Positions 17,301 to 60,265 of a stretch of 64,000 nt of DNA are shown here, piece after piece. The first letter of the stretch is position 1, and every line of letters starts with the position of its first letter. Under the pieces are notes generated by a model, which had not been told where the DNA came from, made no database searches, and saw nothing but the letters and a program-made list of their open reading frames with translations. Origin of the DNA: Octopus vulgaris (taxonomy: Eukaryota); NCBI GenBank assembly GCA_951406725.2, contig OX597826.1, positions 23,374,001 through 23,438,000 of the forward strand. The letters run 5' to 3'. The translations under genes and the position numbers were made by a program.

Positions 17301-20300
17301 TTGCAGTTCTATATTTAAGAGATGAGGAATTATGTACATTATTTACATTCGACAGATATCTGTCCAGGTGTCTTGGGGAAATTTCGAACCTGGGTTCTCA
17401 TTCCTAAGGTATTTTTCGATGTTATTATTATTATTATTATTGTTCAGGTCACTGCTTGGAATCGAATTCGGAATCTTGGGGTTAGTAGCCCACGCTCTTA
17501 ACCATTACGCCATATGCCCGCGGACAATTATGGAGTGAATATTAGGGTTTATAAATCTAATATTTTTCTATCCTTCTACTTTCTACCAAGTACAGGTTGG
17601 TATCAGGAAAAGCATCTTGCCACAGAACACTGCTTCAATAGTTTCTCATCCAGACCATGGAAAAAAACTGGACAAATGTAAATACCAACAAATGAAAACA
17701 TTAAACACATAACAATTTCTGATACGAACCTGAATGAGGATCTATGTCTTGAATAACCAGCAAATAACTCATCTGCTCCCATTCCACATAAAATTACCTG
17801 AAGAAAGATGGAAGAGTCAATGAAAAACAAGAGGAAAGTCAGGCTTAACAAACTTCATTTTATTGAGTCACATAAACAAGGATTATCTTCGTATTTTTTT
17901 AATTTATTCATCTATATTTACTCAGTGCAGGCATGGCTTCCCAACCATGTGGTTTTGGGTTCAGTCCCAAGTCCCACTGTGTGGCACCTTGAAAATGTAT
18001 CTTCTATTGTAGCCTCCGATTAACTGAAGCCCTGTGAGTGGATTTGGTAGATAGAAACTGAAAGAAGCCCATCGTATGTGTTTTTTGTGTGGATATGTGT
18101 GTCCCCCCCTTTGTGAAAGCACACGGCTTAGTGGTTAGGGTATTTAACTCACAATTGTAAAGTGATGGGTTCGATTCTTAACAGCACGTTGTGTCTTTCA
18201 GCAAGATACTTTATTTCACATTGCTCCAGTCCCCTCAGCTGGCAAAAATGAGTTGCACATGTCATTCAAAGGGCCAGCCTCGTCACACTTTGTATCACAT
18301 TGTATCTCCCTATGAACTACATTAAGGGTATGTGTGTCTGTGGAGCACTCAGCCACTTGCACATTAATTTCATGAGCAGGCTGTTCTGTTGGTCAGATTA
18401 ACTGGAACACTCATCATAGCTGATAGAATGCCAGTTTCTTATTTTTTTACTGCCCACAATGGGGCTACACACAGAGGGGACAGACAAACAGATTAAGTCG
18501 ATTATATCAACCCCAGTGCACAACTGGTACTTATTTAATCGACCCCGAAAGGATGAAAGGCAAAGTCGACCTCAGCGGAGTTTGAACTCAGAACGTGACG
18601 GCAGACGAAATACCTATTTCTTTACTACCCACAAGGGGCTAAACACAGAGGGGACAAACAAGGACAGACAAACGGATTAAGTCGATTACATCAACCCCAG
18701 TGTGTAACTGGCAAAGCCGACCTCAGCAGAATTTGAACTCAGAACGTAACAGCGGACAAAATACCGTGAAGCATTTCGCCCGACGTGCTAACGATTCTGC
18801 CAGCTCGCCGATAGAATGCCAGTTTCTGTCTCCTTGTCTGACTTCATGTGATGGTTGTAAATGAGTATCACTGTCATACAAGCAGTGTCTTTCATTTCAA
18901 GTTTTTCCTTGAAAATATGTTAGACTATGGAGAAATATTACCTTACTTGAAAACATGTGAGGGTTGGTGATAGGAATGGCATCCAGCCATAGAAAATCTG
19001 TCTCAGTGAATTCCATGTGACCCACGCAAGCATAGAAAAGTAGATGTTAAACCAGTGACGATGATGATAACAACAGCAATGCCCCTGATGGAATAAATGA
19101 AGGGAAGAGTGTGTGCATGCATTTTTGTGTTTGTTCATTAATTCAGGGTCACAAAATATTCCTGTATTGAATGAAAATACCTCATGGTATACCTATCTGT
19201 GTTGACTGCCTCTCTTTGGCATGAGTGGTGTGGCTTTTGTCCTTCACTGATAGAGGTCATTGAGAAAATAAGTACATCATCATCATCATTTAACATCCGT
19301 TTTCCATGCTAGCATGGGTTGGATGGGAAAATATATTATTTGCGACCACAATGAGACTCGAACTCGCAATCTTCTGATTTGAAGTCAGACACCTTATCCA
19401 TTAGGCCATGCGGCCATACCAGGGATTAAAAACTGTTTGTAGACAATGCCTCAGCAAGGCTACATTCCAATGATTGAAACTAATGAAAAAATAAATAAAT
19501 AAAAGAATAATGTTCAACAAATTACCTTAGCTCGACTGTAAAACAGCTTTCCTTTATTGGGGCCATTTCCCAGAATTCCAAGGCCTCGACTTGCAAACCA
19601 TATGGCACATCCAATGCTGTCATCTAATACAGAGCACAATGGATAGAGCAAATGGGACACACGTTTCTGCCTGAAAATAATATTTCATACACATGAAGAA
19701 GATTTATAAACTTTGTAAAGTGGTTGGCATTAGGAAGGGAACCCAGCTGTAAAATCCATGCCAAAACAGACAGTGGAGCTTCGTGCAGTCCTCTGGTTTG
19801 CCAGCTCCTATTAAACCATCCAACCCATGCTAGCATGGAAGATGAACATTAATGATGATGATGATGATGATGTGTGAAGTAAAAAAGCTATGGATCGAGT
19901 TGTTGACACTAACCCGTCTGAGACTGTCTCTGGTCTTTTGGACATAGAATTTACCTGTTCTAAAGTGTGCATTGCTTTGTGGATGGATTTTGTAGATATC
20001 TAATTCAAAGCTTTTCATAACTTTATGTAAGAACCTGTTGCTAAGTTATATTCTAAACAGCAGTTTCACAAAGAAATAAAAGTAAAAATGAATTTCTAAA
20101 AATACTCCAAATTTTTTATTAATTTTCAAATTGAAGCAAATTCAAAGTCTTACAGAGCCAGTCATCACCTGAAATAAATATGACTTGGTGACATGTACCA
20201 TGCTTTCACTAATTGTTTTAGGTGCCTGTGCAGTCACAAGCAGACATAGAGAGTCTCTTGACTCTCCCATCCTTTTTGACCCAGCTGCACATTGAAGGTG

Positions 20301-40063: not shown

Positions 40064-40893
40064 TGTACCAAGCTCTTGTAGGCAGAAATTCAAAGATCCC
40101 AGAGAAGATAGTCAAATGGAATTGTTTAGTTGAAGACTTGACCTCAGGTAAAAAAAAAAAAAAAGAATCACTTTGTCTCAAATGAACACAACAGTCTCAC
40201 TTCTCTAAGCACATACATAAGACACTCTTAATTCTCCTCTCTCACTCCATGCAAAGATGTAACAATCTAATTTGTAGCCAACATACATAACTTATGGCTT
40301 ACTCTTGGTAACAAATTTTTGTATCATCATCATCATCATCATTTAGCATCTGCTTTCCATGCTGGCATGGGCTAAACAGTTTTATTGAAACTGGTAAGCT
40401 GTCAGTCTACACCTGGTTCCAATCTAATTTGGTTTCTACAGCTGGATGCCCTTTCTAACACCAACCATTCCAAGAGTGTAACTGGAGCACTTATCATGCC
40501 ACTGGCACAGGTGCCAGTTATGTGACACCAGCATCAGCCATGACTACAATTTCACTTAGCTTGACGGGTCTTCTCGAGCACGGCATATCACCAAAGGTCT
40601 CGGTCCCTTATCATTGCCTCCATGAAGCCCAATGTTCGAAGGGTGTTTTTCACATGTCACCAGCACATTCATTGAAAACATCAAATGGAATCAATTTAGC
40701 ATGGGTAGCAACATGCAACCTAAACCAGCCACCCCAAACATCCATCTAACCAGTTCTAAACTTCTATTCTTTTTGTTATATGTTTTGAATTTTGCCCAAT
40801 ATTTTCATGTTGAATTTTCAATTACTTTTTAGTTTGGTTTACTCCTTTCTCAATAGCAAAAATTGGATCATTGATTCCTTTTGACATTGCTTA

Positions 40894-47700: not shown

Positions 47701-50700
47701 GTGTGTGTGTGTGTTAAATATATTGGCATGACAACTCTCCCTAGATATAACAAAATTTGTTTCAATACACAAATTCAAATAAAGAATCTTGCAAACCAGA
47801 TACAAAAACGAAATTACATGATGTTGTTTATGGCTTAATCTAAGGCAGCAAGCCGACAGAACTGTTGGCACACCGGGAAAAATGCTTAGCGGCATCTCGT
47901 CCCATCTCTATGTTCTGAGATCAAATTCCGGATTTTGATATCTATGGAATGGATTTCCTCTACAGACCAATCAAGTATCCCAACTGTTGGGATCAGCACT
48001 GGTACTGCAAATGCATTGTGGGATATTGTTTTCTGCCATATTTTCCTATGTATGTGTATATATCTATATATCTAAAACTGTAGTTGTGTGAGTGTCTGTC
48101 CCCTTCGATTTAGATTCCTAACTACTCCCACATTTTGCGGTGCAGTTTAACCAAATTCGGGTATCTTATAGTCGTGATTCATATCGAGCCCGTCTGAGTA
48201 TTAGTGCGCGTCTACGATGAGTCTACGATTTAAAAAATAATTTAACATCATTTTTTATTCCATTTTAATGCATAATTTTTCGTGTGTCGATGGCGGCGGA
48301 GTTGGCGTCCATGGTCAAACCTGCACCTGTTTGCTTCTCCCCCTTCTTCCCTCTCTCGTGAAGCTGTGAGGAAGGGAGTGTAAGGAAATCAACGTCGTAA
48401 AGCGTTGTCAAGGAGACCAGCGTTCTTTTAGAACAACGACTTCATGGCTTGAAGACACCAAAACAGAAATGGCTAAGAAAGCCCGAATCGGCATCTATAA
48501 GGGAAGTAACTCTCTAAAAATGCTTATATAGTTATTTCCCTTACAAACCCGAGCAACGCCAGGCGATACTGCTAGTATATCGGTTAATATCTAGATCCGC
48601 ACCCGGTGGGAAAAATGAGATCCGCACCCGGTGGGAAAAATGGAAACGAAAATGTGTAACAGTTGTAAGGCATCGTATATTGACGGAATAAGACGGGAAA
48701 AAAGCGCGCTGACAAACGGGGGGGGGGGGGGGCTCGGGAAATTCCTAGGATCAACCGTAGAGGCAAAAATGGAAAAAAATATGTGTAACAGGTGTTTAAA
48801 CGCATTTCACACACATAGCCCAATGTCATAATTCAAAACTAACGCAGCGAAAATTTTGAAAAGTTCCCCCAGTTCTGAAAAAAATCGATAAATTCGACAT
48901 GGGGTCGCGAATCAGAAACACAATGGTGAAAATTGATGGTAAATTTTTCTTTAAATCGTAGGCAATTTTCCGAGCCCCCTCCCCCCCCCGTTTGTCAGCG
49001 CGCTTTTTTTCGTCATATTCCTTCAATATACGATGCCTTACAACTGTTACACATTTTCGTTTCCATTTTTCCCACCGGGTGCGGATCTCATTTTTCATTT
49101 TTGCCTCTACGGTTGATCCTAGGAATTTCCCGAGCCCCCCCCCCCCCGTTTGTCAGCGCGCTTTTTTTTTCGTCATATTCCTTCAATATACGATGCCTTA
49201 CAACTGTTACACATTTTCGTTTCCATTTTTCCCACCGGGTGCGGATCTCATTTTTCCCACCGGGTGCGGATCTAGATATTAACCAGTATATCTATATATA
49301 TAAAACTGGTTGTGTGAGTGTCTGTCCCCTTCGATTTAGATTCCTAACTACTCCCACATTTTGCGGTACAGTTTAACCAAATTCGGGTATCTTATAGTCG
49401 TGATTCATATCGAGCCCTTCTGGGTATTAGCGCGCGTCTACGATGAGTCTACGATTTTAAAAATAATTAACATCATTTTTTATTCCATTTTAATGCATAA
49501 TTTTTCGTGTGTCGATGGCGGCGGAGTTGGCGACCATGGTCACACCTGCACCTGTTTGCTTCTCCCCCTTCTTCCCTCCCTCGTGAAGCTGTGGGGAAGG
49601 GAGTGTAAGGAAATCAACGTCGTAAAGCATTGTCAAGGAGACCAGCGTTCTTTTAGAACAACGACTTCATGGCTTGAAGACACCAAAATTACCATCATTT
49701 TTTATTCCATTTTTAATGCATTTTTTGCTATAACTCACTAAAATGCTTATATAGTTATTTCCCTTACAAACCCGAGCAACGCCGGACGATATTGCTAGTA
49801 TATATATATAGGGAGAGAGAGAGAGAGATTAACCATAACCCAAACGCACAAAGCCAAAAGACGGATGAGCATCGAACCATGTCTCCGTTCAGATTCAAAA
49901 ACCCACTGGAATTATTCTGCCTTTCACGTTTTTCTGCTTTTTTTTTTAAATGGGCAATGAAATATTTACCAGTAGTATACTTAGGAACAATCAGTTAGGT
50001 ATATTTGCTGTTCAAACATTGGATTAAACCTATATCCAACCTTTATGTTTTCGCTCTACAAAAATATTTAATAAATGCATAAGTCAACGTTTGGACAATA
50101 AAAAGAAAAGAAAATAAACACACGCAAGCTCGTAGAATTATACGCACGCGCTAAAGTTAGAGCCTCTACGTAGGCATTGGACCTGCTAGAAATATCAATC
50201 AATGCTCCCTCAATATACATTCTATTGTTCTGAGAGAAAGCAAAAGGAGAAGGAAGGAAGGCACGTTGGACAGTGTAGTCATAGATGCGAAATGATTGAG
50301 ATGGAAGGAACGTGGTGATGAGAATTTCAATGCCTTTGATCAGATGCTTGCTCCGTTAGGGCGGTTGACTCGGGGATAACCGAACAATAACAACAATAGC
50401 CATAATTATCAAAGAGAAACATTCGTAAAAATAGACAGATGGTTTCATAAAATTATCCTTTGTCCACTCCTTCCTTCGACCACATTTATAGATATAAAAC
50501 TCATGTACACGATTAACTCGCAAAGGTAAACAGACGAAGGAATGATCTCAGTGACAAATAAAGTGGAGAAGGTCATTGGAAGCAGTGGTTTTAAGCAGAA
50601 AAAATAACGAGTACATACCTCGCTCTTTGCGTCCATTAAGAAATCCTAAGTTTGGATCGAAAGTCGGAGGGTTTTTATGGTCCGGGGCGAGTTCTGGATG

Positions 50701-50739
50701 CATAAATTCAAAGACAACATGACCAGCAGCATTTCCCAT
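44609..50739 (-). CDS. NDUFB7: NADH dehydrogenase (ubiquinone) 1 beta subcomplex subunit 7 (B18); 3 exons, 128 aa
   Basis: MG start, PTFDPNLGF..RKER, RDYCAH, twin CX9C motifs, RMKEYEREKRL; exon phases 1 and 2 join cleanly. Confidence 0.96.
45600..46220 (+). mobile_element. RTE-clade LINE fragment, second family, in NDUFB7 intron 2
   Basis: FKYLS, VESVLLYGAETWTL, LDGCYTRMLRMALN. Confidence 0.75.
46259..46427 (-). CDS. NDUFB7: NDUFB7 exon 2
   Basis: MIATQEEL...RDYCAH...EQCEYD; tag acceptor, gtaagt donor; 169 nt. Confidence 0.95.
47100..47425 (+). mobile_element. RTE-like RT fragment
   Basis: AEVLK...IPSNW..SIIVSCYKGKGDA..SYRGLKLLDQVMKIMERV. Confidence 0.75.
48063..48575 (+). mobile_element. 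Non-autonomous Helitron, copy 1
   Basis: TC start, 3' hairpin-like sequence plus CTAG|T. Confidence 0.7.
48582..49284. mobile_element. Foldback DNA transposon with GG..CC termini and 8-bp TSD
   Basis: GGTTAATATCTAGATCC...GGATCTAGATATTAACC; TSD AGTATATC; inverted arms over 200 bp. Confidence 0.85.
49291..49798 (+). mobile_element. Non-autonomous Helitron, copy 2
   Basis: Near-identical to 48063-48575, ends CTAG|T. Confidence 0.7.
50619..50739 (-). CDS. NDUFB7: NDUFB7 exon 1
   Basis: MGNAAGH...GRKER; G|gtatgt donor; 121 nt. Confidence 0.93.
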
Positions 50740-51020
50740 ACTGACAGAGCCGAGGTCACAATTGCAACACGAAGGCAAGAACGGGAGAGCTTCACAACTA
50801 AAGGGAGACAATTAACTAACACGAAAGGCTTATTTTGGGATTATATCCCTTTAACCGATAAGTTATTGCTCTTGATATCAGGTCATTAAGTTCTCTTGTG
50901 AACCAAGTTTGATAGTCTTTAATTCTAATGTTTTATACTGACAATTCTTTATTTTATAACATTGAAGAGTTACATAATCACTTTTCGAAATGCAATTCAT
51001 GGTGTCTGATTATATTGTGA

Positions 51021-53797
51021 GTTTTCTCTTGTAACTTCATCACTGTCACGGAAACATGGGCGCATTCCTTACTCTGTGATGGGGTTTTCAACATTACGGG
51101 GTACAACCTCTTCCGTAAGGACCGCACTAACCGCCGTGGTGGTGGTGTGATGGTCTACGTTCGTTCAAATTTTTTGGTAATTCCTTGTGCCGATTTGAAC
51201 GAATCACAAGAAGAAGTTTTTTTCTGTGACGTGCGTATGACCATGTCAACACTCCTGCTTGGCGTTGTTTATCGTCCCCCAAGTTACCATCGGGACACAC
51301 AGCTTTGCAATGTCCTCCGAGCTGCTGCCAGGAAAACAGCCACTTATGTGTTTATTGCAGGCGATTTCAATCATCCTGAGATCGATTGGGAGACCTTCCA
51401 TTGGCCACAGAGTGCAAACGATTTTGTTGAGCTTGTGCTGGACTCAAACTGGTCACAAGTAGTCACCTCTCCAACAAGAGGCGACAACACCTTGGACCTG
51501 CTCTTCACCACAACTCCTGAAGCGGTTATCAATTGCACTACGGAGGAACCTCTAGGTGACTCTGATCATGCTATGATCATCGCCAATCTGGCTCTTGCGG
51601 GCAACAAAAACCTGAACCATCTCCAATCTGCTTCCTTCGATTGGAAGAGAGCAGATTGGAACCTGTACCACACTGAACTACAGCACCCAAACTGGCGTGA
51701 ATTCTACAACTCTGGAGATGTGAATACTATACTCCAGAGTATCCTGGACTCAATATGGGCAGCATGTGCAGCATCAGTGCCACGTAAACAAAAAAGAAGA
51801 ACCGCCCCAAAAGGGCAATTTGGGAAACTTCAGCGGTCCGACTTGCCAGGAGGGAACGTCGGACTGCTGAACGGGAATACAGGTTGCATAAATCAGACAC
51901 CAACAGGAAGAAGCGGAATAAATCCTCCAACCATCTCAAGCAAGTGACAAAAAAAGCAGTGCTTGAATTTGAACAGTGCATAGCAGCCAATCCTGACAGC
52001 AAGGTTTTCTGGAAATATGTGCACTCAAAGCAGAGACCTCACTCTCCAGTGGGCCCTCTTCGCAACCCTCACACAAACCAGATCACTGACGACCCCAAGG
52101 AATGCGCAGAACTCATTGCCGAGTGCTATGCAAACATATTCACTGTTGAAAGTCAAAATGTACCATCTTCACCATCACTAACAGCAAACTCCATAACAAC
52201 TATGGAATTTACACCTGCAATGCTGCGACGTCACCTTCAAAATAAGCGCAACTATGCCTCCCCTGGTCTCGATGGAGTTACATACCTGCTTCTCAAACGT
52301 GGCAGGCACTTCCTTTTACACCAGCTTTCTATTTTCTTCCAGTACTGTCTCAACAATGGTGCTACTCCGGAGCAGTGGAAAACTGCCAGTGTCATTCCTC
52401 TGTTCAAAAAGGGCGACCGCACATCACCTGTCAACTATCGCCCAGTCAGTCTCACTAGCTGTATTGCAAAACTGATGGAATCGTGTGTCAGAGAAACACT
52501 CTGGAACTTCTGGAGCTCTCACAGTCTCATCCGACCCTCACAATATGGATTTGTCCCTAACTCCAGCTGCAGTGACCAGCTTGTCGAGTTCCTTGAGGAC
52601 ATTACTCAGATTACTGACAGTGGCTCATGGGTGGATGTTGTCTACCTTGACTTTGCTAAGGCTTTCAACTCTGTGCCACACAAAAGGCTTATGGTGAAAC
52701 TCTCTGCAATGGGTGTGGGGGATGACCTTTTTAACTGGTTGAAATCCTTCATCCTCAGCCGAAAGGAGGTAGTCACAGTTCTAGGACAGCACTCTACACC
52801 ATATGAGATGTCATCGGGTGTACCACAGGGATCTGTCCTTGGCCCCCTCTTGTTTGTGGCATACATTAACGACATAGATGCCAATTTAGAGAATGCCACA
52901 GTATTGAAATATGCAGACGACATCAAGCTGTACCTTGAAATCAAGAGGACAGATCCTGATGTCTACAACTCTTTCCTGCAATCAGACCTAGACACAATGC
53001 AGCAATGGATCACAGACTGGCAACTGAAACTGGCTGTGGACAAGTGTACCACCATGCATTTTGGGAGAAAAAACCCTGCGTTCACATACTCCCTCCACAA
53101 CACTGATATCAAGAAATCCTCTTGCGAGCGTGACCTAGGCATCACTGTCAGCAGTGATTTGCGTTGGTCAAAGCATATCTCTAAGATTGTCAGGAAGGCC
53201 GAGGGTGTCTTGGCATCACTCAGCAGGTCTTTTGTTAGCCGCTCTCCAGCCATCTATTTAAAACTGTATACAGCTATGGTACGACCACACTTGGAATTCT
53301 CATCATCAGTTTGGAACCCCTATCTTGCACAGAACATTGACCTCCTGGAATCTGTCCAGAGACGTGCAACCAAACGCATACCCTCCATCAGACACCTACC
53401 ATATTCTGAGCGCCTTGTTTCCCTGGGCATGGATTCACTGAAGCTCCGGCGTTTGGCGACGGACTTGGTAAACACCCACAAAGTTATCAACCACCTCACC
53501 AACAACAACACTGAACACCTTTTTGATCTCCATGTGTCTAACACACGTGGACATGCCTACAAAGTCAGAAAACAATACAGCTCCCATGACTTTCGGAAAC
53601 ATTTTTTCACGCTCAGAGTTGCTGAAGCATGGAATAAACTGCCTGCGTCAGTTGTTGACTGCCATGACACTGCATCTTTTAAGGCCCTCATGCTTTCCGA
53701 AATCCGCCGAAACTTCACCTGATTATATATACACTTTGGATGAGTTGTAGTGCACCTGAGCACTGTACACAATTATTATTATTATTATATTATTATT
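51021..53797 (+). mobile_element. CR1/L2-group LINE, 5'-truncated; near-intact endonuclease-RT ORF with one frameshift near 51790
   Basis: APE motifs VTETW, RKDR..GGGV, GDFN, LDL, SDH; RT motifs YLDFAKAF, GVPQGSVLGPLLF, YADD; (ATT)n tail. Confidence 0.92.
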
Positions 53798-54231
53798 AAA
53801 TCAATTTCTGGGAACCCGTGAATAGATAAAAAATTCGTGTTGTTTATGAATATGTGGTTGTGGTGTATGCGAGAGATTCGAAATAAAGGCACCTACCTTC
53901 TCTTCGCTCAGATGGAGACCCTTCAACGGTAATGGATCCTTCAACACAACCCGACCCGAACGCTAGAAATAGCAGCCGCTTCTCCCAACTTTAACAACGT
54001 GCTGACCCCGTCTTACTCGCTCGGCGACCTCCGTCGAAGAAAGGCAGAATCCTGCCCTACCTGCGCGCGTGTTACTGCTGCCCCTTCCGGTCAGCTCCCC
54101 AGCTGCTGACGTCATCCCACACGCCACCCTGATCTTAAAGATCACAATCTCTCTACTCCATGTCGTAGTCCACCATCCAACCGGGAGAGCGCCTTGAGCG
54201 TCGAGATCTTCTCAAGCTAGGCACCTCGTTC

Positions 54232-55444
54232 GGTAAAATTACAGATTAACACCCGCACGATTTTCACTAAGAAAAAAAAAAAACTCGGATTTTTTGCGTG
54301 GAATCAAGTACCCTGACCTCCTAATATGCTGCAAATCCCATATTTTGGTCCGGAATTGCTCCGGAAGGGGGGGCGGTTACCCCCCCCCCCCGGAATTTTC
54401 ACAAGGGAAAAAAAAAACCCCTCAGATTTCTTGCGTGGAATCAAGTACCCTGACCTCCTACTATGCTGCAAATCCCATATTTTGGTCCGGAAAGGGGGGG
54501 TAACACCCCCCCCGGAATTTTCACATGGAAAAAAAAATCAGATTTTTTGCGTGGAATCAAGTAACCTGACCTCAAAAACAAAAAAAACCCCGAATTTTTT
54601 AGATACCTTTCTGCTTTTTAAGACAATAAAGTGTTATTGGAGGGAAATCTAGCTGCTATTTCTAGCTGCCTGAATGACAACATAGCGATTTACAGATAAA
54701 TGAATTAATTACTATTTTAATGAATTAATTATATAAATTAAATAATTCTTGAAAATTAATTAATATTAATAATATTTTTTGAACAAAGTAAATAATTTTT
54801 AAAAACTTAAATAATAATTTTTTTTTACACAAACGCGAACGTATATAACGCGCAAAATTATTCCGTAGAATTTATCAAATTAAAAAACGCAAAATTAATA
54901 TATTTTTTGAAATTGCAAATTATTTAGAATATAAAAATATACAAAAATAAAACAAATGAAGTTAAGTTTAAAAATAAATGTGATACCTATGCTCTGTAAG
55001 TTGCTTCTTTTGTCCAATTAATATAATATATCAATAATTTGTTCACACTTCAATTTACTATTTTCTAGAATTTATAAATTAATTCATTAAAATAGTAATT
55101 AATTCATTTATCTGTAAATCGCTATGTTGTCATTCAGGCAGCTAGAAATAGCAGCCAGATTTTCCTCCAATAACACTTTATTGTCTTAAAAAGCAGAAAG
55201 GTATCTAAAAAATTCGTTTTTTTTTTTGTTTTTGAGGTCAGGTTACTTGATTCCACGCAAAAAATCTGATTTTTTTTCCATGTGAAAATTCCGGGGGGGG
55301 GGGTGTTACCCCCCCCCATTCCGGACCAAAATATGGGATTTGCAGCATATTAGGAGGTCAGGGTACTTGATTCCACGCAAAAAATCCGAGTTTTTTTTTT
55401 TTTTCTTAGTGAAAATCGTACGGGTGTTAATCTGTAATTTTACC
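54232..55444. mobile_element. Non-autonomous foldback DNA transposon, Merlin-like
   Basis: GGTAAAATTACAG...CTGTAATTTTACC termini, inverted arms of about 370-500 bp, 8-bp TSD CCTCGTTC. Confidence 0.85.
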
Positions 55445-56612
55445 CCTCGTTCTCCCCCTCTCCACAATCGTCGTCCGTCGAAGTGACAATCCTGCGAAGG
55501 TCCAAGACGTGTCGCGGCATTCCATCCACGGAGACGTTGTTTCTGGAATTGACCGCCGTCACCGTTCCTCTACTCCATTGAGACGTACAGCGCGCCTTTG
55601 GTGGCTTAACCCAGACTTCCTCCCCTATTTTCACGCAAGCGAGTCCCTTCTCTTCCTCGTGGACCTCCGGCGCTTTACTCGGGTGCCTCCATTCATATTT
55701 AAATACAGCTCTCTGCGGCACAGATTCTTCAGCTTGTACCAAAAAACTGCTTCAAGCGGCGAAATGTGCCCTCTTTCCGCTATGGCTTTGACTGTCCGAT
55801 GGTGCCTCTCTACGATCACGCTACCGCTCGGCCTATACGCTGCTCTGAACAAGCGACGCACCTTCCACCGGTCAAGCATATTCCTCAATGCTTCCGAACG
55901 AAACGCCACCCCGTTGTCCATTAGCAGTTCTTCCACGGGACCTCTCTCTAAAAATATCCCGTTCAAGATCTGCGCAATCTCGTCAGCAATGCCTGTTCTC
56001 AACTCCCTCCAAATGGCCAGCCGGCCCGGCCCGCAGTCGACCATGGAGATACATTCCCTGATGGTAGTGCGTCACATCCACAGCTAGCCTTTTCCAGTTA
56101 TGCTCCACCGGAAGGTTTCCCTGATCATGCCCACACGGAGCAGGGTCAATGGACTGACACCTGTCGCAGCTTCCGACCACTTTCCGGATGCTTCTCCTAG
56201 TGACGTCAGCATCAATTTTCTTCGCCAGATAGCATGCAATCTCTTCAGTTCAGAGTCATCCAACCGACACGCCGCAGCTATCCCTTTCCGGGCCTCCACC
56301 GGTTCCTCCAACCACGCCCTTTTCACCCTGGTCAGTGCGTCCGTCCTGTTTTTCTCCGAAGGCACGAAAACCACGTTCAGCTTCAGTCCGAAACTCAGCA
56401 ATCAATTCTCCTATAACTCCTAGACGGCGCTTCACCAATATCGTGGCACCTTTCGTCCGAATTCTCCTTTCACCGGTGATCACCGATCCTACCCAGCCAA
56501 GCGCAGTGGCCGAATCCGTCCGGATTTCAATTGTGCGCAGCCCCCATTTCAGGGCCAAGTTCACCCCTTTTCAGCACCGCGTCTAATTCGGTGACATTGA
56601 TGTGTTTGAAGT

Positions 56613-57213
56613 TGTAGTGATACTATAACGGTGCGCGCTCGCGCACCGTCCATTTTCTATTTCGCGCGTGTTGGTGCCTTCACCAAGGCACAGAAAGGAA
56701 GGGCCCTCTCGCGCATGCGCGAACCACCGGAAGCACGACCCTTTTGCCTACCTGGTGGTTAGCCAAGGTAAGGGGGTCGTAGAACGTTTGACCGCTGGCA
56801 GCAGCAGCGGCGACTTGGGACAGCAGCGATTGAAGGAGACAGTCACGCATATTTTCTCTCCGTTCGAACTTGCTTCTAGCAGTCCTTACCAAAAGGCCTT
56901 TAACCTGGATTGTTGCAGACATCATCTTCTTCCTCCGGACGCCATTTTGACCCTTTCTGTTTTGGCGGCTGAACATTGTAAATATTACAATCGATTAACT
57001 TTCAGCCTTGCGCGCCCCGAACCAAGGACATCAGATAACTACTTATTGTTATTGTTACAAAGAAAGAGAATAAAGTAGTATATATATATATTTTACGTCT
57101 GCGTCTTGTTTCTGACTAGTAGAATTCTGGATTATTAAAGCAACGAAAAGTGATTGCTTTCTTGTACCCCGAAAGTACAAGAGAAGATATTCACTCACAC
57201 TAAGTTCGTTACA
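56613..57213. mobile_element. Solo LTR inserted in the Gypsy RNase H region
   Basis: TGTAGTGA...TCGTTACA, 4-bp TSD AAGT; removing it restores ADDF-KHINVTELDAV. Confidence 0.85.
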
Positions 57214-59770
57214 AAGTCATCTGCTTTCCGAAGCCAGGCCGCGTCCTCCACCGCAGCACCTTCGATCGCCAACACAACCCCTATTGCTATACTGCCAGCA
57301 TCACACCAGACGGTCCCGCATTCCGTCTTGGGCACGTACCAGTTCTCCCTGACCGGGTCTTCCGCTCTCGTCCTCTCTAGGATTTCCTGCATCATCGCCA
57401 CCGTCCCTTCTCCCACCTTGTTGCCCCAACTCTCCCCCTCCGCTCGTCTCTTGGTGTAACTGCACGCCGTGCGCAGCCATCAAGCGATCGGGTAGTGACC
57501 GACCAACTTCCCACACACCGAGAACAGCTCTCTCCTGCTGACGCTGGAACTCAGCTCTGGGATTTCATTCCCTCTCCGGAACACCAACTCACCCGATCTA
57601 TCTCTTCGCAGCTTCAGCCCCAGTGCGGCTCCCCCTTCCATCGACTCCGGTGGCTTCGCAATCAGTCGGAACTTCTCCAGATGTCTACCTCGTTGGCTGG
57701 CACTAGTGCTGTCCACCAAAATGTCGTCAATGTAGGAGCTGGTGGCCTCTCTAATCTTGCCGTCTTTCCCTAGGACGGACTTAAGCAGTGCCGCCATGAT
57801 CTTCGGAGCGGAATTCAGTCAGAAACCCAGCCTGGTTAAACAGTACGTCCGGCCTTTTACTGCACCAGCTGATATCGCCACAGTTTGTCGCTCACATGGA
57901 GCTGCAAGTATGCCGATTTCAAGTCGTCAATCGTCGCTGCCTTGGTCGACTGTCTCCACGCACGTAACGTCTCGCCACAAACGTCTGTCGCTTCCCCTCC
58001 CGTGTGACACGATATATGCTGGTCTAGCTCCCTGAAGTCCAGCACCGGTCTGACTTTTCCCTTCGTAGGCTGCACCACCACCATCAGGGGTAGCACTCCG
58101 CCTGCTACCCCCTCCTCCCAAGGGACAAGGACCCCTTCCTCGATCCACCTCTCCACCTCGTCTTCAAACTCGACCCTGGCGTGGCCTTTCAGGGTGTGCT
58201 GGTAGCAGCTCACTCTGTTTTTCAGCATCGGAGGCTCGTCCTTCCATCGCCACTCTATCGTCCACCGCTGACCATCGAACGCCACCTGAAAATCTTTATC
58301 CTCGATGGTATAAGCGGTGCAGTCCCTCGCGGGGCTCTGCTCTCTCTGGCGATCCTGACTCGCAGTGCACGACGCCCCCACGCTTCCGAACGTGACCTCT
58401 TCTCCCACAATACTGACGCCACCGAGGCGGTTGATGGCATCCATCACCACATCAACCCCATCTATCACGCGTTCGGCCACAATTACCTGCAGCCTTAGCG
58501 TGGCGCCGCGCACCACTATCTCTACCTTGCTGCTGCCTTTGCAACGGATTTCGCTGCCGTCGACCGCCCGGACGCTACTTGCCCCGTTCCATTTCTTCGT
58601 CACCCTTGAAGTCACAAGGGTGGTCGTGCAGCCCGTGCCACGAGGGCCTTGAACGTCTTCCCCTCGGCCTCCACATCAATTAATGGCAGCGTCTCCAAAA
58701 GCGCCTCTACTCGTTTGCGGGAAAAGTTCGAGAGGCAGCAACTTCCCCGCGGTCGTTTCCCTGGTCGCAATCACGGGCGATGTGCCCTGTCTGCCAGCAT
58801 CGATAGCAAACGTGCCCCGGTTGCGTATACTCCCTCGCCATGTGCGACCCCTGACATCTAAAACACCGACTTGAGAACGGCCGCTGTCGTTGCACGGTGG
58901 GCTTCTGCACGTCTTTCTCCATCCGTCGTCCGTCTTTACGCACCTCCGTTACCGCCATCGCTATCGCCTTCCACCCAGAGTGCCGCGTCAACACGCGGGC
59001 TTGAGTCACAAGTTCGCTCAGCGCCATCTTTTTACTCTCGGGCAATTGTTGTAGGTGAATCCCTACATCGTCGGGGAACCCATTTACGAACGCCAGTCGC
59101 GCTGCTCTCTCCAGCCCTTCTCCTGTAAACCCAACCAGCGTCGCTAACCTTCGAACTTCTGCCGCGTATTCGTCCACCTGTCCTCCTGTCCATCTAATCG
59201 TACCCAGCTTAGCAAAAGCTGTGTACTCACACTCTGTGTAGGCATCCCTCAGACGTTGCTCTATCTTTTCCGCGCTCAGACGTTCTTCCTCGTCCATCTC
59301 GTCCATATAGCGTCAACGCGCTCCCTTCCAAATACAGCGTCATAAGACTTGCCACATCGCTTATACCTTGCAGTCTTGCCACCAGCCTGATTTTACACAT
59401 CCAGGCCACTACATCGCCTTCACCATTAAAGGGTCTGATGATGTCGCTGGCGATCCTGATTTTCGCTGCCATCGTGGTGACGTCTTATATGGAGCGCCGA
59501 AATATCTTGAGGTGTATGCGAGAGATTCGAAATTAAGGCACCTACCTTCTCTTCGCTCAGATGGAGACCTTTCAACAGTAATGGATCCTTCAACACAGCC
59601 CGACCCGAACGCTAGAAATAGCAGCTGCTTCTCCCAACCTTAACAACGTGCTGACCCCGTCTTACTCTCTCGGCGACCTCCGTCGAAGAAAGGCAGAATC
59701 CTGCCCTACCTGCGTGCGCGTCACTGCTGCCCCTTCCGGTCAGCTCCCCAGCTGTTGACGTCATCCCACA

Positions 59771-60265
59771 GAATATGAGTTCTGTCGTGGAACCAATGCA
59801 TCCCAGACAGCTCAAAACATAAATGAGGTGTTTGGTGAAGATGTGGCGAACGAGCGCACTGTACATCGATGGTTTGAGAAGTTCCGGTCTGGTGACTTTA
59901 CTCTTGAAAATTAGCCCTGTGGTAGAGCTGAGACCAAGGTGGATAATGATGAGCTGGAAACTGGGCAATCTTTTGTTTCCAAGTAGAACAATTAGAGAAG
60001 AAGTGTATATCAGGTCATTTAGAATGAAATGTCTGATTTTGAACTGAAAGTTTAATTTACTTTATCTCAACAAAAAGCAATGCAGTGCACCTAAATTATC
60101 AGCATAATTTTTACTATTTTTATCGGTAGCTTATACACACTTGTCCAGTTCCTTTACCTTGTCGATTTGTTTCATATATGGTCCAATACAGTTGGAATCG
60201 AAACATCAAGCCTTGTTGCTAACTCACGCGTATTTTGAGATATATCCATTTCCGCTACAGTTTCC
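59771..60265. mobile_element. Mariner transposase relic; 5' part on plus, 3' part inverted
   Basis: KIRVVYEY|EFCRGTNASQTAQNINEVFG...RWFEKFRSGDF reads across the Gypsy TSD; SQNTRELATRLDVSIPTVLDHMKQIDKVK on minus at about 60240-60150. Confidence 0.8.

Follow-up and report, generated by a model that had tools for sequence, protein, structure and literature searches.

Natural and engineered tRNAs with a UCA anticodon

The closest natural parallel to the gene copy described here is the G36A allele of human tRNA-Arg-TCG-6-1, in which an Arg-UCG gene has likewise acquired a UCA anticodon (PMC12361112). In the accessible text of that study, G36A made five of six human Arg-UCG genes read through UGA, and its natural occurrence was confined to the silent TCG-6-1, a damaged and unexpressed isodecoder with a mutated B box that gave no suppression and whose G36A allele is rare (0.01%). 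The octopus copy differs in that its promoter boxes are intact and its damage lies in the T stem, while its presumed silence is read from CpG decay. Engineered tRNA-Arg(UCA) molecules and ACE-tRNAs resemble it in combining an Arg body with A20, C35, G73 and a UCA anticodon (PMC12361112; PMC10284701, accessible parts), and the statement in an earlier note on this DNA that engineered Arg-UCA tRNAs read UGA agrees with the first of these sources. In the suppressors described there the T stem is intact or has been strengthened, and the tRNA is either expressed from a plasmid or delivered, whereas the octopus copy carries a C50-A64 mismatch and lies in a CpG-depleted gene body.

Similar in another respect are the copies with discordant anticodon and isotype described with tRNAscan-SE 2.0, which join a mismatched body and anticodon to a redundant family and few further changes (PMC8450103). 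The authors, in the available portion of their paper, see in such conflicts a typical feature of copies undergoing slow decay (PMC8450103); the octopus copy stands apart from those described there in that its new anticodon reads a stop codon. Eukaryotic tRNA-Sec, as far as the accessible description goes (RF01852; PMC5330540), also has a UCA anticodon and G73, but the octopus copy is 73 nt long, lacks the long variable arm and has a 7/5 fold. A literature search of mainly open-access papers found no report of a cephalopod Arg gene with a UCA anticodon; in the accessible part of a 2026 octopus ribosome preprint, a suppressor tRNA is used only as a binding reagent.

The tRNA copy and its host gene

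The window, a 64-kb stretch of the Octopus vulgaris genome, contains a single tRNA according to ARAGORN (19342–19415, minus strand, anticodon TCA), and the Rfam model RF00005 matches 19343–19415 over its whole length (58.5 bits, E 4.6e-10), bearing out the earlier reading of a 73-nt tRNA with a TCA anticodon. The copy (19343–19415, minus strand) has no intron and a short variable loop. Comparison with paralogs identifies its body as that of tRNA-Arg(UCG), as had been proposed: it matches the majority gene of the family at 68 of 73 positions and its closest intact paralog, L002, at 70 of 73. The UCA anticodon (19380–19382, minus strand) sits on a stem with five of five Watson-Crick pairs, and the G36A change at 19380 is a CpG transition that yields an A36-A37-A38 motif. 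The A box (19397–19408, minus strand), which includes A20, and the B box (19354–19364, minus strand) are those of the majority gene, with no differences at positions 8–24 or 52–62. A T4 run (19328–19331, minus strand) follows 11 nt past base 73, inside the family range, T4 being the most frequent length of the first T run among family members (17 of the 39 near-intact ones, or 18 of 40 with the window copy counted). The earlier account of the anticodon position and stem, A20, both boxes and the terminator about 11 nt downstream is therefore confirmed in the sequence, and C35 and G73 are intact as well. A20 and C35 had been named as major ArgRS identity elements, in agreement with PMC9976931, and the copy keeps this synthetase identity set alongside a stop-reading anticodon.

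ARAGORN labels the window copy SeC, a label that comes from the anticodon alone. tRNA-Sec has a 9/4 fold, and octopus genomes hold tRNA-derived SINEs, Arg-derived families among them. That the copy is a tRNA-Sec gene or the head of a tRNA-derived SINE has a negligible probability. The UCA anticodon and the ARAGORN label point that way, but the 73-nt length, short variable loop and 7/5 fold are at odds with tRNA-Sec, and Rfam returns RF00005 rather than RF01852. Structure thus refutes a tRNA-Sec identity (no long variable arm, no RF01852 match), and the earlier note was right to stress the lack of that arm; true tRNA-Sec genes lie elsewhere in the genome, three in number, 86–87 nt long, on other contigs and scoring 72–78 bits with RF01852. 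Two of them (L071 and L072, contig C24) are identical, inverted and 57 kb apart, and the third (L073, contig C3) has two differences. A SINE is equally ill-suited to the locus: similarity to paralogs ceases about 13 nt past base 73, where the T run lies, no shared body follows, and the roughly 60 copies found are mostly intact.

Immediately downstream (19261–19333, no strand assigned), the depth of matches marks a piece of about 53 nt from a very abundant repeat (19271–19323) between 10-nt direct repeats, which agree at nine of ten positions and overlap the T4 run of the tRNA. This piece is possibly a truncated retro-insertion at the tRNA terminator. Many other Arg-UCG genes, located at unrelated sites, have one repeat end in common just past their T run, within about 25 nt after the tRNA (L045, L057, L065, the L066 array, L067, L068 and L031); another repeat follows the 5'-truncated copies L056, L058 and L059. 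Repeat ends at Arg-UCG T runs possibly reflect an insertion preference for tRNA terminators. No target-site duplication was recognised around the window tRNA itself, and the search for a 5' flank common to it and its paralogs returned only short low-complexity matches. The copy may have arisen either by DNA duplication or as a retro-copy of a precursor.

The tRNA lies in the sense orientation within an intron of ASNSD1 that starts at 19525, 110 nt before it, which matches the strand and distance given earlier. The coding exon upstream of it (19526–19670, minus strand, about residues 513–560) translates into 48 residues that are 100% identical to an Octopus sinensis protein named ASNSD1; this identity came from a protein search (19 matches among 22 candidates), while a Pfam scan of the 48-residue exon found no family. 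With the O. sinensis protein as query, tblastn finds 12 coding segments, which lie on the minus strand between 38073 and 5812, and the gene (5809–38073, minus strand) ends in TAA. By this count the tRNA follows the eighth segment; the earlier designation of 'intron 9' requires that one more segment upstream, at 40069–40028, be included. That segment, located 2 kb before the first coding segment, is a second match to ASNSD1 residues 4–17 and could be an alternative first exon or a duplicated piece. The ASNSD1 frame is intact, with no stop inside the exons. A host gene in need of read-through was considered and rejected: three apparent stops fall in intron overhangs, and the true stop is TAA.

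CpG transitions, their recurrence and the T stem

The family was delineated by a search of the genome with the locus itself, which gave at least 42 matches (40 of 68 candidates scored), and by a CpG-degenerate motif from the 3' arm, which gave 41. The 80 loci reduce to 58 distinct copies, 55 of which were kept (at least 55 aligned bases); three partial copies shorter than 55 nt were dropped before counting, and the pattern matches L061 and L063 had no whole-gene BLAST match. The window copy is thus one of at least 55 copies of the tRNA-Arg(UCG) family, whose anticodons comprise 47 TCG, three TCA, two TTG and one each of CTG, TAG and CCG. The copy with TAG (Leu) at L068:1465-1537 (G000:C1, ~184.996 Mb) has an Arg-UCG body with B-box damage and lies in CpG-rich DNA. 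All 39 near-intact copies keep both the TCG anticodon and the C50-G64 pair.

Five differences separate the window copy from the majority gene (positions 7, 25, 36, 64 and 66), and all are CpG transitions. A7 and T66 form a compensated A7:U66 pair that is common to the intact genes L002 and L003, and these two genes and the window copy also have about 13 nt of 3' trailer in common; sequence comparison accordingly places the descent of the window copy in the A7:U66 Arg-UCG subfamily. A count of pair covariation over nine related rows revealed nothing beyond the swap between A7:U66 and G7:C66. Since A7 and T66 are shared with L002 and L003, the changes private to the window copy relative to L002 number only three, namely C25T (19391, minus strand), G36A and G64A (19352, minus strand). 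L002 has seven CpGs; the window copy has lost three and retains four (4/5, 50/51, 72/73 and, within the B box, 56/57), with no other change.

C25T is a C>T change and the other two private changes are G>A, with no compensatory change, so both strands have been struck. Methyl-CpG deamination strikes both strands. The chance that three of three changes would be CpG transitions is 0.0003–0.002 under uniform mutation; CpG transitions are also enriched among the near-intact copies (seven of 19 distinct changes), and at that rate the same outcome has P=0.05. The absence of non-CpG changes, where 1.2 would be expected at the rate ratio of 14 found in the L062 array (P(0)=0.31), is compatible with neutral decay and is no proof of it. 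The caveat raised earlier that TCG to TCA and C50-A64 both fit CpG deamination is well founded, both being CpG transitions and C50-G64 being retained in 39 of 39 near-intact copies.

The surroundings of the window copy are CpG-poor. CpG observed/expected (o/e) over 2 kb of flank is 0.37, where 37 near-intact copies have a median of 0.92; in the 350 nt upstream there are three CpGs (o/e 0.25), against a median of 11 for the same 37. DNA this poor in CpG surrounds just one of the 47 TCG copies, and one of the 37 near-intact copies has a lower flank o/e. ASNSD1 itself has an o/e of 0.43 across its span and 0.47 in its exons, compared with 0.92 at 48–60 kb of the window. The stretch upstream of the gene (48001–60000) has a GC content of 55% and o/e values of about 0.9–1.1, and meets the CpG-poor gene body at a sharp border. 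Octopus 5mC is concentrated on the bodies of broadly expressed genes, according to the accessible text of PMC9476566; in mammals, CpG density around tRNA genes follows their activity (PMC6961574, accessible part), and tRNA genes can be repressed by methylation (PMC8113476, likewise). The CpG-rich surroundings that mark active tRNA genes in mammals (PMC6961574, in part) are missing from the window copy, a mammalian measure that serves in octopus only as a proxy, and we infer by analogy that the relation between CpG, methylation and activity may extend to this animal.

Across the family, a flank o/e below 0.45 is found for six of 55 copies, which include all three TCA copies, and none of the other 49 has TCA; the cut of 0.45 was chosen after the data had been seen, and the six low-CpG copies represent only four loci. 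Over the 55 copies, CpG loss shows no significant rank correlation with flank o/e (rho -0.08, p 0.59), and the pooled count of lost CpGs (28 of 47 versus 28 of 427) takes in the inherited A7/T66 pair. L045 lies in CpG-poor DNA yet is fully intact. This gene, also listed as L011 (G000:C3, ~13.789 Mb), is an intact Arg-UCG gene with an o/e of 0.35 whose similarity to L012 extends no further than 5 nt on the upstream side and about 12 nt on the downstream side; it may be a young copy that has not yet gone as far along this route. A tRNA-Ala(AGC) control gave no support: only one of its 64 copies lies in CpG-poor DNA, with two of six CpGs lost, and the correlation was rho +0.24 (p 0.053) in a set that was mixed with TGC isoacceptors and underpowered. 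A large tRNA-Ala cluster (L111-L135; G000:C5, 51.57–52.06 Mb) contains many degenerate tandem copies, in several of which the anticodon triplet has changed, for instance to TGA, TGT or AGT.

The anticodon change has occurred elsewhere in the family. At L062:1325-1575 (G000:C23, ~29.095 Mb), three members of the A7:U66 subfamily stand in tandem, with the anticodons TCA, CTG and TCA; ARAGORN calls the third copy tRNA-SeC. The array has lost 20 of 21 CpGs, carries 18 other changes, is embedded in a CpG-poor region of over 20 kb (o/e 0.10–0.48) and is clearly dead. Since one copy kept G36 while losing C35, the common ancestor of the array presumably had TCG, and G36A would therefore have arisen there at least once, apart from the window copy; the resemblance of the window trailer to those of L002 and L003 likewise suggests independent events. 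The mirror change C35T and G36A are equally frequent, each being found in three of the 55 copies, and because two TCA copies and one C35T copy sit in the dead array, the anticodon change recurs by decay. This bears on whether the window copy could be an adaptive suppressor selected for programmed UGA read-through in octopuses, which we consider highly improbable: what speaks for it is confined to the anticodon and its undamaged arm, but the copy is single, its T stem is damaged without compensatory change, the mirror change is equally common, and the host gene, ending in TAA, offers no UGA to be read.

The same three substitutions alter the fold to different degrees. C25T converts G10-C25 into G10-U25, which is seen in two of 39 near-intact copies and is the sole new G-U pair; the pairs 2-71, 5-68 and 49-65 are already G-U in the majority functional gene. 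The earlier suggestion that several G-U pairs are a sign of decay consequently stands for G10-U25 alone, the other three of the four being normal for the family. G64A replaces C50-G64 with a C-A mismatch, so that the stems are not all paired as in the family; C50-A64 is unique to the window copy in comparison with the 39 near-intact copies and adjoins the family's G49-U65 wobble, leaving three Watson-Crick pairs in the T stem. The Rfam score of 58.5 bits compares with 66.6 for L002, although one cluster copy with TCG scores below the window copy, at 56.0. Folding of unmodified RNA, a rough guide, gives a cloverleaf energy of -15.8 kcal/mol for the window copy against -23.4 for L002, and -1.6 against -4.5 kcal/mol for the isolated T arm. 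In the same calculations, the predicted T-stem pairing probability is 0.00, compared with 0.29–0.39 (0.39 for L002), while that of the anticodon stem is higher than in the parents (0.78 versus 0.23–0.27).

Sequencing runs from other animals bear on whether these letters are real. Eight runs with four organism labels contain at least half the words of a 501-nt stretch; the best-matching DNA run (0.98 of 48 words), which may be the source of the assembly, was not counted. Among the matching runs listed there was none of RNA, a result with no bearing on expression. Contigs from four runs, one for each label, were compared with 19150–19366, and in four of four they cover tRNA positions 50–73 and the trailer with no listed difference. 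Depth over positions 50–73 is about single-copy in these four runs, but the contig pieces are not itemised, so their origin from this very locus is unproven. The result suggests that A64 is common to the other runs and is not an assembly error. The flanks of these genomes differ by only one or two of 152 letters (in the three runs that cover that part), and the comparison has no power to detect selection. A36 itself could still reflect an error in the assembly or a rare allele carried by this animal, in a copy already damaged at A64, for the anticodon letter (19380) rests on one assembly and the flank letter 19251 is private to that assembly against all three runs covering it. We think this very unlikely, given that G36A has the same CpG-transition form as the other two private changes and recurs in two decayed copies.

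Probable decay of a redundant copy

We consider it likely that the window copy is a methylated, probably silent and decaying redundant Arg(UCG) copy and not a working reader of stop codons. On this account, a copy lying in an ASNSD1 intron would have taken on the gene-body methylation typical of constitutive octopus genes, which would dampen its transcription by Pol III and leave it little used. With the need met by more than 40 intact TCG genes, it would be released from selection and is free to decay. The TCG triplet itself holds a CpG, so that Arg-UCG copies in methylated gene bodies are expected to become TCA or TTG, and the anticodon would be among the early casualties of deamination. A transcript, if made, would be weak in its T arm, and its processing or its delivery by eEF1A would be poor.

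The alternative closest to what the earlier note proposed is a tolerated, weak Arg-inserting suppressor of UGA. Such a tRNA would be made by low Pol III output or by RNase P/Z excision from the sense ASNSD1 intron, charged by ArgRS through A20 and C35, modified to i6A37 by virtue of the new A36-A37-A38 motif, and would read a small share of UGA codons. Much about the locus would suit it: promoter boxes, identity elements and terminator match those of intact paralogs, four of seven CpGs survive with no change outside CpGs, and the arm with A64 and its flank appear unchanged in four of four runs, albeit from pieces that are not itemised and from near-identical genomes. By analogy with mammals and plants, where A20 and C35 are the main determinants (PMC9976931), a transcript, if made, would probably be charged with Arg. 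Human cells tolerated the G36A change that made suppressors of five of six Arg-UCG genes (PMC12361112, accessible text), A36-A37-A38 is modified by Mod5/TRIT1 in support of suppression (PMC10275265), and tRNAs can be processed from Pol II transcripts (PMC6445147). Against this, C50-A64 next to G49-U65 leaves only three Watson-Crick pairs in the T stem, where eEF1A binding is set by pairs 49-65, 50-64 and 51-63 and where stabler stems raised Arg suppression (PMC10284701, in its accessible part); the C50-G64 pair, in particular, improves read-through in human work (PMC12361112, likewise). CpG changes that affect both strands argue for prolonged methylation in the germline, and intronic tRNAs of mitochondrial type, a different class, went unprocessed in human cells (PMC7722341). 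We regard a weak suppressor as unlikely.

What stands of the earlier interpretation is the Arg-UCG body, the distinction from tRNA-Sec and the preservation of identity elements and boxes. Its caveat of decay is better supported than the suppressor it put forward, because three of three private changes are at CpGs, an otherwise invariant T-stem pair is broken, the surrounding DNA is CpG-depleted and two dead copies carry the same anticodon change.

The three marker bases U25, A36 and A64 would distinguish the window copy directly in tRNA-seq. Were it both expressed and charged, an animal would possess a fixed, natural opal suppressor that inserts Arg, which would bear on the tolerance of animals for UGA read-through and on suppressor-tRNA therapy; that such a fixed suppressor exists here, with a weak T stem, a boost from i6A37 and low, constant UGA read-through, is a slim prospect. 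For annotation, copies of this kind are mislabelled as tRNA-Sec or as suppressors, as in two such ARAGORN calls in this genome. As a decaying copy the window gene is ordinary, but it is a clear illustration of the way in which animal genomes come by stop-reading anticodons.
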